Assembly (NCBI GenBank): GCA_038087875.1
Contig: CM075989.1
Coordinates: 9,488,001-9,548,000, forward strand
DNA: 60,000 nt
Reading direction: 5' to 3'
From: Malacoraja senta
Lineage: Eukaryota
This document shows positions 317 to 59,270 of this stretch, in pieces. Numbering within the stretch: position 1 is the stretch's first letter; every line of letters starts with the position of its first letter. Made by a program: the position numbers and the translations under genes. The notes beneath the pieces were generated by a model. The model searched no databases, was not told where the DNA came from, and saw only the letters and a program-made list of their open reading frames with translations.

Positions 317-525
317 TGTCATCAGTTCCTCCGACTCTGCTCATTACCAGCACAAGTCTGCAGTTATTACAGATCTTGTTAAATCAAAATGTTGTTGGAT
401 TTTCCCCAGGCACCGCTCATTATTAGATTTGTTATTGGTTTCCCCCTGAGACCTACCCATATGTCTGCCTGTGTGTCTGTCTCTCTCCCTCTCTCTTTCT
501 CTCTCTCTCTCTCTTTCTCTCCTTA

Positions 526-1082
526 TCGCTTTACCTCCCCCCTTGACTCCATTCAAGGACCCAAGCTGTCTTTCCAGGTGCGGCAGAGGTTCCCCTGCAC
601 CTCCTCCAACCTCATCTATTGCATCCCCTGCTCTAGATGTCAGCTGCTCTACATCGGTGAGACCAAGCGCAGGCTTGGCGATCGCTTCGCCCAACACCTC
701 CGCTCAGTTCGCACTAACCAACCTGATCTCCCAGTGGCTCAGCACTTCAACTCCCCCTCCCATTCCGAATCCGACCTGGGCCTCCTCCATGGCCAGAGTG
801 AGGACCACTGTAAAGTGGAGGAGCAGCATCTCATATTTCGCTTGGGCAGTTTGCACCCCAGCGGTATGAACATTGACTTCTCCAATTTCAGGTAGTCTTT
901 ACTTTCTCCTCCCTTCTCAGCTCTCCCTGAGCCCACTGTCTCCACCTCTTCCTTTCTTCTTCCCGCCCGCCCCCACCCTCACATCAGTCTGAAGATGGGT
1001 CTCGACCCGAACTTTGCTATTTCCTTCGCTCCATAGACGCTGCCTCACCTGCTGATTTCTCCAGCATTTTGTCTACCTTTGT
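526..1082 (+). mobile_element. Penelope-like element 3' fragment (GIY-YIG endonuclease and tail)
   Basis: Peptide CTSSNLIYCIPCSRCQLLYIGETKRRLGDRFAQH..EQHLIFRLGSLHPSGMN. Tail shared with the other copies. Confidence 0.9.
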
Positions 1083-18127: not shown

Positions 18128-18836
18128 ATGAAACAGACAAATTGAACAAGATGATCAGACAGACAAAGACAAAGTAACCAGCGTGTCTGGCACAAGGAGA
18201 GAGAGAGATCAGCAGGAAAAGCACATGGACTGGTGATGAGCAGCTGAGGTAGAGGCCCTTCTTCACCAGTATCCAGTTTCTCTGTGGCCTGTTCTTGCTC
18301 AGCATCGATCTGCTTGCTGAACAGGCAGTGGCAGGTTGTCCTTTCACCTTGGGGAGCCAGCATTCAATGCACACAAGATGAAATTCTCACTTGCTGATTG
18401 CTTTGAGGGTCTTGGGTGAAATGAGTTTGGGGAAATCTCAATCAAAGTGCAGGAGGCCCCAGGAAAGCAAGACAAAGAGAACTTGCCCTTCCTATTCACG
18501 ACGTGACCGATGCAAAGAAAAATTGCGAAAGCATTATTATTTAAAATAAAGAAATGGCACCACATTGAACTGCTCCAGTTCCCTATTTCTTGGGGTCAGG
18601 ACAGTTTCAAAAGCAGCGGGAATGGTTTGTCAGCACTGTGAAATGTCACAATTTGTGCAAATCCAATATTAATATTAAATTTCCTGTCACTATGTGATAA
18701 AGGAATGAATATCTGGATCTCTGTACTCCTCCTTGTAACCTTGAATATTCAATGTTATTCATGGCAGAAGGAACATTAAACAAATAATTATCCACTACTT
18801 ATACATCTTACATCAAGTATTACAATACTTGATTGT

Positions 18837-18951
18837 GGCAGATTGCAACCCCTGTTTCAACTAATGCAATCAACCTGACGTGCACAAACAAGATCAAATA
18901 GAACAATTTGACCTACAACTGTAAGCTGTGCTCACCACATGCGAGAAGAAG
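18837..18951 (+). mobile_element. Second, internally deleted copy of the ribozyme-headed short retroposon
   Basis: Perfect 12-bp TSD atacttgattgt (18825-18836 and 18952-18963). GATTGCAACC..CCTGTTTCAACTAATGCAATC body and GAGAAGAAG tail. Confidence 0.75.
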
Positions 18952-20321
18952 ATACTTGATTGTAAAGTCTCTTTGACTGGGTAGCACGCAAACAAAAGCT
19001 TTTCACTGTACCTCAGTACACCTGACACTAATAATCAACTAAACTGCTTGCCATGCCAGGCAATACAGGGACCAAATGACACCAATCCCCCCACAATCAC
19101 CACTATGTTGAAGGATGTGTGAAGCAATGGATTTGCTGAAATTGACCTCAGTTCCTCTCGGCAGCGAGGGGAAATTAGAAATCATTAAATAATCATTGGC
19201 CACTGATAAATCCATCGGGAAATTCAGGAGCAACTTCTTTTGCTGGGGAATGGTGAGAATGTGAAGCTTGTTAACCCAGGGAGAGAGCAGTGTATCCACA
19301 CCATAGCGTGGTGCAGTAAAACACAGTAAGGAGCGTTATTAAACAAAATCTAACTGAAATCAAGATTGGAGAACTGGAATTCAGTTAATGCTGCGTCTTT
19401 ATTCAAGGGCAGCAGGAGAAAGCCAGGTATCCGCGCGGGCTGGCGAGTCTTAGATCGGAGGCGGGAAAGTTATTGGAAGGGATTGTGAAAAATAGGATGA
19501 ATTTGCAAGGACTAATTAGGGAATAGTCAGTATGGCTTTGTGCATGAGAAATCATTTCATGCATTTTTTTGACTGAGTTTTTTGAGGAGGTGATTAAGAG
19601 GACTGGCAAGAGCAGGGTGGTTGTCTACATGGACTTTTACAAGGCATTTAATAATGTTATGAAGTTAAGAAATGCCAGCAGCCTCATATTTACATGGATG
19701 AGAGAGATCGGAAAACTAATTTTTCGTAACAATTTATGTTTTGAGATAAATGCAGCTGAATTCATTGTGTGGGAACAGTGTGCAAGCTAATGTATCTCCC
19801 GTTTACTGTTCTGAAACTAGTATTAATGATATTATTCAGTTTTCTTAACACTTTTGTCAATTGTAGTGGCTTACAACATTAAACAGACCATTCAGCCCAA
19901 CCAGTGCTACTGTAATCTAATGGCCCTTCCATTGCAGAGACTGGACCCTTGATGCTGTGTTGTTTTACTCAAATGGTAAGATTTAGCCTCTCAGTAAATC
20001 CTGGCTGCCATGACTGGCTTCATTGCATTGCTTTTTATCATTTCCCTTGGGCAATGTTGACGTTGTGAATCCAAGGTTTATATATTGGATGCTATTTATT
20101 TAGTAGCTGTCTCTTATCTCTTAAGGCTACAAATGTCACAGTCCTTGGGGGTCTTTCCGAATGCTGATTCTGCCACCACCATTCAGCAGTTACCATTACC
20201 AGCCCATTGAAGGATCTGAGAGCTGTGGCTAGACCAGAGAAGATCTGCTCCTGGCTCAGAAAGTTGCAGGTTCCAAGACCTACAATTTGACTAATAATGA
20301 GGCTGACATGCCCATAAACTA

Positions 20322-36626: not shown

Positions 36627-38322
36627 CTCGTGGTCTTCCTCTTCTATACTTTGTTCGTCGTGCCTCGATTCTTCAGATCCTTGCTCGGTGTAAGGTGTAG
36701 CCAGGGCCTCTGGGTGGGACATTTCGTGAGCGGGTTCTGAGTTGCTGGGGTTTCTTGGAGTGGGATAGTTGGCGAGGCTTCGTCCTCGGACATCGGTTCG
36801 ATTCCACGTCCACCTCCGGCTCCTCTCCGTCGCTCTCCATGTCGGGAGAAGCCGACCTGTAGCTCGAGGTCTCGCTCATAAAATCCGGTGACATATAGCC
36901 GTGCCTGGCGCCGTTGTACACTTCCCTGTTGCCGTAGAGTTTGGCGATGCTCTCCGCGTCCTTCACCACCGGCCGGAAGGCTGAGATGTAGTTGAGTTTG
37001 CGTGGTGTCAGTGACACTGCTTCTATGGACCTGGCCTCGTCTCCCGACCTCTCCTCCTCGTTCCTGGAGTGGGTACTCGAACACCGCTCGCTGTCCGCCA
37101 GGCTGTCCTTGGGGGTGTTGCTGCTCCGGTCACTTTGCTCCGACGCGTCCATCTCATTCTGCCGACCGTTCGGGTTGTCGGCAACTTTGGCCTGAGCTTG
37201 TGGATAGGGCGGCACCGGGAGAGTGCCGGCCGCCGGCCAAAACATGGGGAAGGAAGGGTAGACGGCGTCCTTGTTGCCCGACCAGAACATGCCGGGGAGG
37301 CCGGCCTGCGTCTTGTCTCCAACCACGTTGGCTTCGTCTTTCTTCTGACACAGCCCAAAGGCCGGGAATCCGTAGGGATGCGGGAACATGGGAGGAGGGA
37401 TCTTCTGCAATATCCCGAACCCCTTGCTGGGCACCGGGATGACGGGGTAACTCCTAACGTTGTTCCCGAGGCTGAGACCTCGCCCTTCGTCCTCGCATCT
37501 CATGGCTTTGTGAGGGATTTCCGAGCTTCTGGGCGGCATGGCGCTGGGTCCATGCGCTTTCAGAGCTCCGGATCCGTGGTTGGGGAGGGTCCGTTTGCGA
37601 CTGCCTCCATTAAACATGGCCTTGACATCCTCCCATGCATGTGCCAAGTAATCACTCGGTATTTTGTCGGATAGTTTGAGGTGTCTCCGCCAGGAGTTGA
37701 AGTTAGCGGCGTCTGGCTGGGTATATTTAGCATCCGGGACTCTGTGAGAATGGAAGATGAATTTATTTGGAGAAAAGTACATATTGCAATAACTGCATTT
37801 AATGCACTTGGCCCGAGAGCTGTTATACCTCGCTGGGATGAAGTTACCGCGAGAACCCCAGGCGCACGCGTGGGATACATCGAATGCAAAGTTCTCGGGT
37901 AGTTTGGGAGGTGAGTGCTCGCCTAGAAAAGACTTGCAGAGCCTTTCCGCCTCCCGTTTGGTGATCATGCCACATCTTCTAGAGGAGATAGGCATGGCTC
38001 CGGCTCGGCGCAAGATCTCCAGCTGGACGGGTGTGCACTGGACACAAGTGATCCCCAGAGCCACCCTCCTGTTGTGGATCTCGTTGTAGCTGTAGTTCTT
38101 CAGCAGCGTGTTGGAGATCTGGGCCAGACACAGTCTCTCCTGACCGTCAATCACCAAAGACACAATGGGCAGCCCGTACAGGACAGCCTCGCCCACAGTG
38201 TTGGTCTTCAGGTTGCTTGAGCCCGGGTGGTCAGGCTGGGTGTAAGGCTGAAGTTCCTGCTTTGAGGTTGGAGAAGAGACGGTGTCGTTCACTGCTGACA
38301 GCTGGCTAGAAATCTTCTCCAT
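36627..38322 (-). CDS. SKOR1: SKOR1 first (large) coding exon: Ski/Sno (DHD) domain and SMAD-binding SAND-like domain; apparent frameshift near 36780-36790
   Basis: Translation MEKISSQL..SKQELQPY..LYGLPIVSLVIDGQERLCLAQISNTLLKNYSYNEIHNRRVALGITCVQCTPVQLEILRRAGAMPISSRRCGMITKREAERLCKSFLGEHSPPKLPENFAFDV..FNSWRRHLKL..PEVDVESNR. SKQELQPY, NYSYNE and GEHxPPKLPENF match SKOR1 rather than SKOR2. Acceptor ctccgcag| opens the exon at 38332, ATG at 38322, donor GAG|GTAGCT at 36627. Length from ATG is 1696 nt (3n+1). Confidence 0.95.
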
Positions 38323-39009
38323 TCCGGAGTATCTGCGGAGAGGAGGCAAATGAAATGCGCCTAAATTCTATACAAATATATATTTTTTCTTCAAAAAAGA
38401 ATTATTTCCCGAAAATTAACCATGCTACGAAAATGCACAAAATTTCCCGACGCGGAGCCTGTATCGAGTGTTAACAGTGCAGACAATTTGTGACCAATAA
38501 TTAAAATAATTCATCATGCAGCGAGATAATTGAGAGAAATATTTCCCATCTAAATAAACGGGCTTCTCGTTTATAAATATCTAGCACGCTGTCTCTGCTT
38601 AAATGGCCATTATGTAAAGATCCACCACAAGCGGATATATATAAATATATATTTAGAAAAATGCAATTTATTTCAAATAACTGCAATCATCCCTAAATTT
38701 ACAACGTTTTAAAAAATGGTGATTGCTCGTTTCTTTTTACTGGGACTCAAATCCTCCTAGGATCAAAATGACCCGTAAATGGAAAATATGATCCAATGTT
38801 AATCATTTATTTTATATATTAAAATATATATATAAGTAGCATCTCCACCGCTAAGACAGCGATATAACGTTTATATATCCCAGTAATTGCAAACATGATT
38901 GGTGCCAGACCCTGTACATACAAAACTAATATGCTTGCACAAAAAGGACCGCAATTATATTTTTGTTTTAATCCGAGTTGCTTTTATTTATTGTTGGTTC
39001 CATTCCTAC

Positions 39010-50291: not shown

Positions 50292-51103
50292 ATAGATACA
50301 AAATGCTGGAGTAACTCAGCGGGACAGGCAGCATCTCTGGAGAGAAGGAATGGGTGATGTTTCGGGTTGAGATTCTTCTGCAGACTGAGAGTCAGGGGAG
50401 AGTGAGACCAGAGATATGGAAGGGTATGGTCTGAAAATGACAGATCAAAGCAGACGATGATCAAGGAAATGTAGAATGGTTCATTTTTTGGTTGAGGGGA
50501 AGGTGACAATGAGGCATACAATCAGTAAAATTAATCAGGAGGACAGTGAAACTGGCTGGAGAACTAGGGTGGAGAAGGGATAGAGAGAGAGAGGGAAAGC
50601 AAGGGTTACTTGAAGTTAGATAAATCAATATTCATACTGCTGGGTTGTAAGCTGCAGGAGGCCGAAGACAGAGAGGTCAGTGTGGGAATGGGAGGAGAAA
50701 GGTTTAGCAATCTGGAGATCACGTAGGCCGAAGTGGATTGCGCGGAGGTGTTCAGCAAAATGATTGCCGACCCTGCGCTTGGTCTCGCCGATATATTGGA
50801 GTTGACGCCTGGAACAGTGGATACAGTATATTAGGTTGGAGGAGGTACAAGTGAACCTCTGCCACACCTGAAAGGACTGTCGGGGTGCTTGGTCGGAGTC
50901 GGGGGAGGTGGTATAGGAACAGGTGTTGCATCTCCTACAGTAGCAGGGAAAGTACCTGGGGCGGGGATGGTTCGGGTGGGAAGGGATGAGTGAACCTGGG
51001 AGTTGCAGAGGGAATGGTCTCTGCGGAAAGGGGTGGAGATGGGATGATGTGGCTAGTGGTGGGATCCCGTTGGAGGTGGTGAAAATGTCGGAGGATTATG
51101 TGG
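50292..51103 (-). mobile_element. Penelope-like element fragment flanked by oppositely oriented tail copies (50130-50260, 51110-51255)
   Basis: Peptide QRFTCTSSNLIYCIHCSRRQLQYIGETKRR. Tail with a degenerate hammerhead-like motif. Confidence 0.85.
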
Positions 51104-56910: not shown

Positions 56911-56976
56911 CGAATTAATGTATCTCAACTGTTGAAGTTCTCAGTTACCTTCAATGTTACAGAAGGATCAGTTGAG

Positions 56977-58093
56977 TAGGTAATAGACTACTGACCCACA
57001 TCTACTACAAACCCACTGACTCCCATGGCTATCTGGACTACACTTCTTCCCACCCTGCTTCCTGTAAGGACTCTATCCCCTACTCCCAATTCCTCCATCT
57101 ACGCCGCACCTGCACCCAGGATGAGGTGTTCCAAACCAGGGCATTGGAGATGTCCTCATTCTTTAGGAAACGGGGGCTTACCTCTTCAACTCTAGATGAG
57201 GCTCTCACCAGGGTCTCCTCTATATCCCGTAGCTCCACTCTCACTCCCCATCCCCCCACTCGTAACAAGGACAGAGTCCCCCTTGTCCTCACCTTCCACC
57301 CTACCAGCCGTCGCATACAACATACTATCCTCCGACAATTTTGCCACCTCCAGCGGGATCCCACCACTGGCCACATCTTCACATCTCCTCCCCTTTCTGC
57401 TTTCCGCAGAGATCGCTCCCTCCGTAACTCCCTGGTTAATTCGTCCCTTGCCACCCAAACCACCCCCTCCCCTGGTACTTTCCCTTGCAACCGCAGGAAA
57501 TGCTACACTTTTCGCTTTACCTCTCCCCTTGACTCCATCCAAGGACCCAAGCAGTCTTTCCAGGTGAGGCAGAGGTTCACCTGCACCTCCTCCAACCTCA
57601 TCTATTGCATCCGCTGTTCCAGGTGTCAACTGCTCTACATCGGTGAGACCAAGCGTAGGCTTTCCGATCGCTTCACCCAACATCTCCGCTCAGTTCGCAA
57701 TAACCAAACTGATCTCCCGGTGGCTCAGCACTTCAACTCCCCTTCCCGTTCCGAATCCGACCTTTCTGTTCTGGGCCTCCTCCATGGCCAGAGTGAGTCC
57801 CACTGCAAATTGGAGGAGCAGCGCTTCATATTTCGCTTGGGTAGTTTACATCGATAGTTTACATTGGATATGAACATTGACTTCTCCAATTTCAGGTAGT
57901 CCTTGCTTTCTCCCTCCTTCCCCCCCCCTTCCCAGCTCTCCCACAGCCCACTGTCTCCGCCTCTTCCTTTCTTCCCCCCCCCCCCCCGACATCAGTCTGA
58001 AGAAGGGTCTCGACCCAAAACGTCACCTATTCCTTCGCTCCATAGATGCTGCCTCACCCGCTGAGTTTCTCCAGCATTTTTGTCTACCTTCGA
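56977..58093 (+). mobile_element. Penelope-like element, 5'-truncated (RT C-terminus, linker, GIY-YIG and tail)
   Basis: IYYKPTDSHGYLDYTSSHPASCKDSIPYSQF, then a 243-aa ORF with FPCNRRKC..NLIYCIRCSRCQLLYIGETKRR. Tail CTGAAGAAGGGTCTCGACCCAAAACGTC. Confidence 0.92.
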
Positions 58094-58582
58094 AGGATCA
58101 TTTGAGATCACTACTCAATTCAAAACCAGTGCATATCACCACATAATTCAAATTTGTCAAGGAGAACATTTGATTTTGATAAGTTATTAAACTGCCTCAG
58201 GTGTGCTACATCTAAAGAGCTTTCAGCACCTGGAGTGGGGCAGGGAAAAAATAAAGTCTACCTGGATTGGATGGGACCATTTAAATCAGCAGATGCGACG
58301 GGCAGCCGATGATAACAGAAGATGTACAGCAAACATTATTTTTGACTTTGCACTACCATTGTCTATATATATATAATGGTGTGTGCATGTATGTATGTAT
58401 ATATACACACACAAACTTTTGTTGTTGTTTATTATGGGTTTTACAAAGTAATATGTTTACATATCTGTTGTGCTGCTGCAAGTAAGAATTTCATTGTTCC
58501 GTTTTGGGATATATGACAATAAAACACTTGACACTTGAGATAGAAACATGATCCTTCACACGACAACTTCATAAAAATAAGC

Positions 58583-58722
58583 TTCTTCTTCTTGCGTAGG
58601 GCGTGCACAGCCTAAAGTTGTTGGACAACTTGTTCTATATGATCTTATTTAATTGTGCACGCCGGGTTGATTGCATTCGTCGAAACAGGGCGGATCACGT
58701 GATGGTTGCAATCTCCCACCCC
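58583..58722 (-). mobile_element. Short non-autonomous retroposon with a 5' HDV-like ribozyme fold, (AAG)n tail and 12-bp TSD
   Basis: TSD ataaaaataagc / ataaaaagaagc. 5' end GGGGTGGGAGATTGCAACC..., 3' end ...TACGCAAGAAGAAGAAG. A homologous copy lies at 18837-18951. Confidence 0.8.
58669..58722 (-). ncRNA. Predicted minimal HDV/CPEB3-like ribozyme
   Basis: P1 GGGGUGG/CCGCCCU with G1-U wobble, P2 GAUUGCA/UGCAAUC, P3 ACC/GAU (one mismatch), L3 AUCACGU, GU after P1, J4/2 CGAA. Confidence 0.7.
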
Positions 58723-59270
58723 ATAAAAAGAAGCAACCATGTTCTTTAAAACTGGAAAACTGGAAGGAACATTCTATTGAGTTGTAGCCTCATTCCCCAC
58801 CATTTATATTCGGGTAATTGATTCTGTGTGTGGCCAGCTATCATTGATTTGTGTGCACTTCGTGCGACCAGCTTTGACTGGATGTTATACCTTTGCACAG
58901 TGTATTGAAGCTGGAAGTTGGATGGTACCTTCAGAACTAATCTCTCCACAATTCTACTCTCACGCATGCTATCCCAGGACCTGGGACAGCTTTGTAGCTC
59001 TATAGTTAATCAAACATTGCCTTCTTTTAATACAGCTACAAGTTTAATGACTTCTTACAAAAAATGTGCAGCAATGAGCCATTTTCACCAGATAATATAA
59101 ATATAGAATGTACATCTTTTTAATTAAAGGTTATTAATAGCAAACTATTTTGGTCACCTTTGTGGTTTGCCTTTAAGGGGTGGAAATGGGTTAGTGTAGG
59201 ATTTGTGATAATCGGTGCATGATGGACTCGATGGGTTGAAGCGCCTGTTACTATGTGGTGTGACTCTATA

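Follow-up and report, generated by a model that had tools for sequence, protein, structure and literature searches.

The window analysed here, a 60,000-nucleotide stretch of Malacoraja senta DNA, carries at 58583-58722 on the minus strand a whole 140-nt copy of a multicopy retroposon, which we describe as a non-autonomous Vingi-like derivative. All of its parts lie on the minus strand. It sits within a 12-bp target-site duplication, the 5' copy of which (58723-58734) has one mismatch to the 3' copy (58571-58582) and abuts the first nucleotide of the element, G1 (58722), placing the boundary where it had been proposed. The sequence from 58722 to 58669 reads as described in the original prediction, and these first 54 nt form a predicted minimal HDV-like ribozyme with its predicted cut on the 5' side of G1, an assignment based on a descriptor parse and on cross-family covariation. 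The 5' strand of P1 (58716-58722) pairs with 58687-58693, with a G1-U wobble, and the 5' strand of P2 (58707-58713) pairs with 58669-58675. P3, L3 and P3' occupy 58694-58706; the 2-nt J1/4, together with a 5-nt loop that the descriptor finds in place of P4, occupies 58680-58686; and J4/2 occupies 58676-58679, with the catalytic-position C at 58679.

The rest of the element derives largely from a LINE family here called V4. Nucleotides 55-79 (58644-58668) are the remainder of the V4 5' end and contain the 5' arm of an end-to-end helix (58654-58663). They are followed by an element-specific linker (58629-58643; 6103 genome matches), which resembles a brief repeat of the sequence that closes the 5' part, and by the V4 3' end (58583-58628). 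The latter consists of the last codons, the stop codon (58612-58614), an 18-nt 3' UTR, in which 58600-58609 form the 3' arm of that helix, and an (AAG)n tail.

The family has one other copy in the window, at 18837-18951 on the plus strand, which is in a more advanced state of decay; it lies within a perfect 12-bp duplication (18825-18836 and 18952-18963) and has a 14-nt deletion in the ribozyme core. Across the two strands of the 60-kb window the structure descriptor finds only the site at 58722-58669, and needs one P3 mismatch to be allowed. This mismatch (58695) and an A as the first base of L3 (58703) are the two deviations of the window copy, and both proved to be private decay and not the family state. 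The P3-L3-P3' segment with the intact stem predicted for the consensus has 3628 exact matches in the genome, against 67 with the P3 mismatch, and among those 67 the A-start loop occurs in the window copy only. The P3 mismatch had at one stage been read as a subfamily marker, a view drawn from BLAST matches that had been sorted by their similarity to the window copy, and refuted by the same counts. From its sequence, the window copy is likely to be inactive.

Elsewhere in the window, some 20 kb away, a Ski-family (SKOR-like) exon at 36673-38367 (minus strand) carries Dachshund-homology and Smad4-binding domains. Penelope-like fragments are found at 56976-57857 (plus; with a weak GIY-YIG match), 383-895 (plus) and 50625-51095 (minus). 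A tRNA gene search of the window found none. Within the element no A box lies before nt 78 within two mismatches, and a B-box-like word with one mismatch is present at nt 51.

The family was counted across its own genome, a 1.94-Gb vertebrate assembly. Exact matches number 5972 for the 19-nt head and 6103 for the internal linker, with none for either reversed control; of the 96 linker matches that fall within the initial 27.9 Mb of contig C1, 50 carry the exact head as well. A rough estimate from the overlap of head and linker matches gives about 11,500 copies. Ninety of the 96 copies picked by their linker were examined for their start, which is at nt 1 in 71 and at nt 2 in 12; of the others, five start at nt 3-5, one starts at nt 20 and one is interrupted. 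With 83 of 90 beginning within 2 nt, the 5' ends cluster at G1 as anticipated. Among 40 of the 46 copies without the exact head, 21 start at nt 1 and 12 at nt 2. Target duplications of 8-19 bp (mode 13) were seen in 45 of 60 tailed copies by raw count, 39 of them abutting the start. The 5' flanks of the copies are mutually unrelated. Mean divergence from the family majority is 4.6% in a set of 66 copies, from which four duplicate loci had been dropped (70 originally) and which was not picked by likeness to the window copy. Common variants within the element fall in J1/2, at the second base of J4/2, and at one P1 position where the pair is kept (U-G/U-A). The element is covered by thousands of sequencing-run contigs from three organisms, and their depth falls at both boundaries (4 of 24 listed runs); these contigs carry no start or strand information. 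Another high-copy repeat adjoins the element at 58415-58538, where there is a second depth peak.

The element was originally considered to be an independent SINE, using the machinery of a LINE with the same termini. Such a LINE partner does exist, but the element is its derivative. The 3' part of the element was read as the last codons of a LINE frame and converted to a pattern, which has 221 genome matches (control 0), and all 30 of the 30 loci read share the 3' end of the element. The LINE concerned is Vingi-like V4. The 5' ends of four V4 insertions (five loci, two of which are probably duplicates) match nt 9-79 of the element at 86-94% identity and continue into an endonuclease frame, and one insertion has both ends inside a single target duplication. 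All V4 5' ends seen lack the first 8-10 nt (42 nt in one case) and all copies are broken; the P1 strand of V4 is accordingly one that we infer from the short element. V4 3' copies are 4.0% from their own majority (27 of 29 used), a divergence that matches the age of the element as judged from sequence.

Sequence comparison thus indicates that the element joins V4 nt 1-79 to the final ~44 nt of V4 through a linker of 15 nt. Because V4 supplies both ends, the element is to be classed as a LINE derivative with an internal deletion and not as a Pol III SINE, and its ribozyme is inherited from the parent LINE. It has the properties of a bipartite LINE derivative, namely both ends of one LINE, no coding frame and target duplications; a strict SINE would have a Pol III head derived from tRNA, 7SL or 5S RNA, with A and B boxes, whereas the head here derives from a LINE. 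Several other sources were considered. An origin of the linker in internal V4 sequence gave only one 11-nt match, in one V4 copy, which is not convincing. Nimb-like LINEs have (AAG)n ends but no sequence in common with the element, and no ribozyme was seen by eye at their 5' ends. Families V1, V2 and V3 have no match to the element body.

V1-V3 were found via a locus with a different single-frame LINE end; they have APE and RT domains and a 3' UTR of about 20 nt. The V1 and V2 frames are 986 and 1014 aa long with APE and RT but no RNase H, which is present in the Nimb control. The V4 RT, known from broken copies, is at 48% to that of V2. An RT tree of 20 pieces from this genome, with no named Vingi, Ingi or RTE reference in it, places V1-V4 in one clade (support 100/99), sister to the RNase H-bearing Nimb-like elements (94/93) and not to CR1/L2. 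Nimb elements belong to the I group, as does Ingi. A search of solved structures returned only L1, R2 and intron/retron RTs. The name 'Vingi' for the V families rests on their architecture (PMC13708176) together with RT motifs that we take to be of Ingi/Vingi type.

Several related LINEs were noted in passing. V2 is a young 3.1-kb Vingi-like LINE with copies 96-99% identical, an intact 1014-aa frame and a head that has the full P4 and reaches 64 bits on the CPEB3 model (L162, L164-L166, L169, L181; for example G000:C8:933500-938900, minus). On unplaced contigs such as C2217, C2348 and C5921, V1 copies recur every 10-25 kb (L132-L161), a spacing that suggests a place inside a large tandem unit. 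Young Nimb-like LINEs make up at least three families, which have RNase H, an intact frame of 1277 aa and an (AAG)n tail (L061-L130). A divergent Ingi/Vingi-like family has an HDV-like head with a weak Rfam match (E 0.08; L261:442-508, minus) and an identical 352-aa frame on many small contigs; some of these contigs have several copies, which may form tandem arrays.

The majority head of the 140-nt family has P1 (7 bp, with the G1 wobble), P2, a 3-bp P3, a 7-nt L3 led by UUC, and a P1.1 that is a single C-G pair. The descriptor places a 5-nt loop where P4 would be, in agreement with the reduction of P4 to about 5 nt described earlier. The central proposal is supported: the retroposon is multicopy, and its 5' boundary coincides with G1 of an HDV-like fold without P4. 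The catalytic-position C is the first base of J4/2 in 61 of 63 copies. A minimum-energy fold of the majority sequence, computed by a method blind to pseudoknots, keeps P2 and the end-to-end helix; nt 2-5 pair elsewhere and not in P1.

Covariation was assessed using one copy from each family. Of 16 head representatives 14 were parsed, one of them poorly, and ten families parse with P1, P2, P3, a 7-nt L3, a G-led J1/4 and a C-led J4/2. Pairing within a family's own head is 0.87 for P1, 0.95 for P2 and 0.93 for P3, compared to 0.68, 0.57 and 0.67 when strands are taken from different families. Several helix positions have three to four pair types across the ten families, up to four of them Watson-Crick types; the families are related, and these counts are not of independent events. 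At the level of sequence, the double-pseudoknot layout covaries across the ten families. The catalytic C and the purines following it are kept in 10 of 10 while the helices change, although the parser requires the C. A first reading of V1 as having a short P4 was wrong. Judged from the modelled fold, the first 54 nt are likely to self-cleave just before G1.

Selection on the catalytic C was also looked for, using the asymmetry of CpG decay. In 63 copies the counts of 1 versus 8 were suggestive. Genome-wide, the catalytic CpG is intact in 2525 cases, with 212 C-to-T changes and 412 G-to-A changes in the partner; a control CpG, with 181 versus 664, is more skewed, and the apparent signal is gone. 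The catalytic C decays at the rate of an ordinary CpG, as would be expected of dead copies, and this adds no support.

The sister LINEs provide a connection to the mammalian CPEB3 ribozyme. V2 heads score 63.8 and 61.3 bits (E 2e-15) on the Rfam CPEB3 model RF00622, for which the cut-off is 35. When the genome was searched with this model, 39 of the 60 matches listed were above the cut-off, and 14 control genomes had none above it. The best 30 of the 60 listed are V2 heads and families B, C, D and E. In one family C copy 52 of 61 columns, counted by hand, are identical to the printed Rfam consensus; the identity covers most of P4, and P2 has a compensatory pair. The head of the 140-nt element itself has no match to RF00622 above the gathering cut-off, and Rfam searches gave no HDV-like match for the window copy (E<=10) or for two copies with an intact head (E<=1). 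The suggested search with HDV and CPEB3 models thus failed for the element's own head and succeeded for the sister heads. As regards the idea of a mobile source of CPEB3-like ribozymes, the close relatives of CPEB3 are the sister Vingi-like LINEs with their full-P4 heads, and not the minimal head.

B, C and D look like lone heads of 100-130 nt without a tail. A V-type frame lies just upstream on the opposite strand in nine of 12 B, C and D heads, and in both of two short V2 heads. We therefore regard B, C and D as 5'-inverted LINE insertions, and their heads as belonging to Vingi-like LINEs. Four of five family C heads near position 1500 of their loci (L193, L195, L197, L203, L206) are inverted relative to a Vingi-like 3' fragment; the sequence of these heads is almost the same, base for base, as the Rfam CPEB3 consensus. 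Frequent 5' inversions flip only the head of about 110-200 nt (L186-L207, L263), perhaps because the LINE protein keeps hold of the 5' module while insertion proceeds.

Unrelated HDV-like ribozymes are known to converge in their core, R2 and HDV agreeing at 21 of 27 nt (PMC8256844), and an argument for descent therefore has to rest on the helix letters. On this basis the sister LINE heads are likely to show where the mammalian CPEB3 ribozyme came from. A trace of Vingi is present in the human genome (PMC5753468), and the CPEB3 ribozyme is reported as not found outside mammals (PMC8233481).

A further feature concerns both ends of these elements. In the element, V4, V2, V1 and family E, the 30-nt segment that follows the ribozyme can form a helix with the 30 nt preceding the tail (10 bp in the element), and the letters of this helix differ among them. 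The numbers of shuffles per 1000 that reach the observed duplex energy are 1 for the element, 13 for V4 and 0 for each of V2, V1 and E. A guessed pairing between V6 and V3 ends was not significant (101 of 1000 shuffles). The V4 5' arm pairs equally well with the 3' end of family E. Family E is a second short P4-less ribozyme-headed element, of about 175 nt (L202, L204, L208-L211, at 1512-1690), with duplications at five of six loci, a CpG-rich 23-mer having 16 exact matches, a 3' end like that of V1 and an end-to-end helix of 12 bp; no parent LINE was found for it. It has a 5-nt loop for P4, yet its score on the CPEB3 model exceeds the cut-off.

Deleted LINE derivatives with a ribozyme head are already known from trypanosomes and from Drosophila R2, and deleted Vingi derivatives from hedgehog. 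NARTc, RIME and SIDER of the trypanosome L1Tc-ingi system are likewise short and noncoding, with LINE 5' and 3' ends and an HDV-like ribozyme at nt 1, and are mobilised in trans (PMC4035085, PMC3185411); their hallmark is the 77-nt Pr77, whereas the family described here has a vertebrate host, a 54-nt P4-less head and an (AAG)n tail. The non-autonomous hedgehog derivatives of Vingi-1_EE and the bipartite RTE derivatives are also internal deletions, the former of a Vingi-type LINE (PMC5786205), and bipartite derivatives keep ribozyme-bearing 5' ends (PMC5786205, PMC4035085). The R2 SIDE elements of Drosophila, too, have lost internal sequence and start with a ribozyme, which frees them from a co-transcript (PMC3414825); R2, however, is site-specific in 28S rDNA and uses a restriction-like nuclease, while the present family is dispersed and has an APE partner. 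Minimal HDV-like or theta ribozymes such as drz-Mtgn-1 have the same compact double pseudoknot without P4 (PMC10879173). About 99% of them are from gut phages, often at tRNA 3' ends, in a survey that also screened human, mouse and protist genomes (PMC10879173); here, about 10^4 copies head a vertebrate retroposon. The adjacency to phage tRNA 3' ends is not seen here, there being no tRNA in the window and no relationship among the 5' flanks of copies. The CPEB3 ribozyme (RF00622) has the same type of L3 and J1/4 and the same one-pair P1.1 as the element, but is a single intronic locus with a full P4; the sister LINE heads share its helix letters, at up to 64 bits (cut-off 35).

A review states that some SINEs use HDV-like ribozymes (PMC6765202), and Kojima (2018) names non-autonomous Vingi derivatives, Vingi being absent from the clades given there as ribozyme-bearing (PMC5786205). 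The listings of full-text literature searches contained no report of a Vingi ribozyme, of a vertebrate P4-less ribozyme retroposon, or of a Vingi origin of CPEB3. The family may be catalogued already, since Repbase, Dfam, patents and supplements lie outside the scope of such searches.

On the basis of these observations, we consider it probable that the element is a 140-nt noncoding retroposon made from about 79 nt of the V4 5' end and 44 nt of the 3' end, whose first 54 nt self-cleave before G1 and so release it from longer transcripts. A copy would be transcribed inside a host or read-through RNA. The P4-less HDV-like fold would cut at G1, leaving a 5'-OH end shielded by the fold, and the segment after the ribozyme would pair with the 3' UTR, bringing both ends into one small recognition module; such pairing would explain why both ends are kept. 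The V4 protein, acting in trans, would then nick DNA and reverse-transcribe from the (AAG)n tail. This would yield near-full-length copies with duplications of about 13 bp, most of which then decay.

A different role for the head is possible, though we hold it to be clearly less probable. It might act as a ribozyme in RNA and as an internal promoter in DNA, which would make the element independent of host read-through. Pr77 of L1Tc and NARTc has precisely this dual function (PMC3383444, PMC4035085), and the dispersed insertions at high copy number would be in keeping with it. The V families also group with Nimb elements of the I group, to which Ingi belongs as well. However, a Pol III A box is absent from the head, and a ribozyme would be redundant if transcription began at G1 anyway. 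It is unlikely, in our view, that the P4-less head is a dead relic, its fold kept as a protein-binding or exonuclease-blocking module and the G1 ends arising from a promoter start or from the parent RNA. The lack of an Rfam match to the head, the lack of a selection signal at the catalytic C, the loss of P4 and the one-pair P1.1 would all be expected of such a relic. Against this, the catalytic C and following purines persist in ten families whose helices change, family E remains above the CPEB3 cut-off with the same 5-nt loop, and natural P4-less ribozymes are active (PMC10879173).

The remaining alternatives concern ancestry. RTE elements have a single ORF and no RNase H. They also give rise to bipartite derivatives (PMC5786205), and with an RT tree that contains no named reference the parent LINE could conceivably be of the RTE clade. 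This we judge very improbable, given the strongly supported V1-V4 clade next to the RNase H-bearing Nimb-like elements and away from CR1/L2, the ~1000-aa APE and RT frame, the very short 3' UTR, and RT motifs presumed to be of Ingi/Vingi type. Scarcely credible is a chance fold in an ordinary tRNA-derived SINE: short helices do arise by chance, and the descriptor matches inside the V4 frame at two loci, but there is no tRNA head, the head is by descent the same sequence as the 5' end of a LINE, covariation extends over ten families, and sister heads match an Rfam ribozyme at E 2e-15.

Returning to self-cleaving release of a V4 derivative, a wider proposal can be formulated, which could equally turn out right or wrong: that the mammalian CPEB3 ribozyme stems from Vingi-type LINEs as its mobile source. 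These LINEs would carry homologues of it at their 5' ends, would scatter their heads over vertebrate genomes, in many cases as a short head in inverted orientation, and would have spawned the first high-copy P4-less ribozyme retroposons of eukaryotes, in whose RNA a 5'-3' helix joins the ends and serves the LINE protein as a mark of recognition. The CPEB3 ribozyme has attracted study through its connection with memory, the question of its origin is open, and its ancestral reconstruction was made without an outgroup (PMC8233481). LINE heads with CPEB3 helix letters would supply outgroups and a concrete, testable origin. The P4-less family offers thousands of natural variants in a vertebrate, where those known previously are almost all from phages (PMC10879173). 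The 140-nt element would define the least RNA needed by a Vingi-like protein, and the covarying 5'-3' helix is a possible reason why few LINE clades make two-ended derivatives. Vingi-1 has been used, with its native UTRs, as a gene-insertion tool (PMC13708176), and both the minimal RNA and the 5'-3' helix bear on the design of templates for it.
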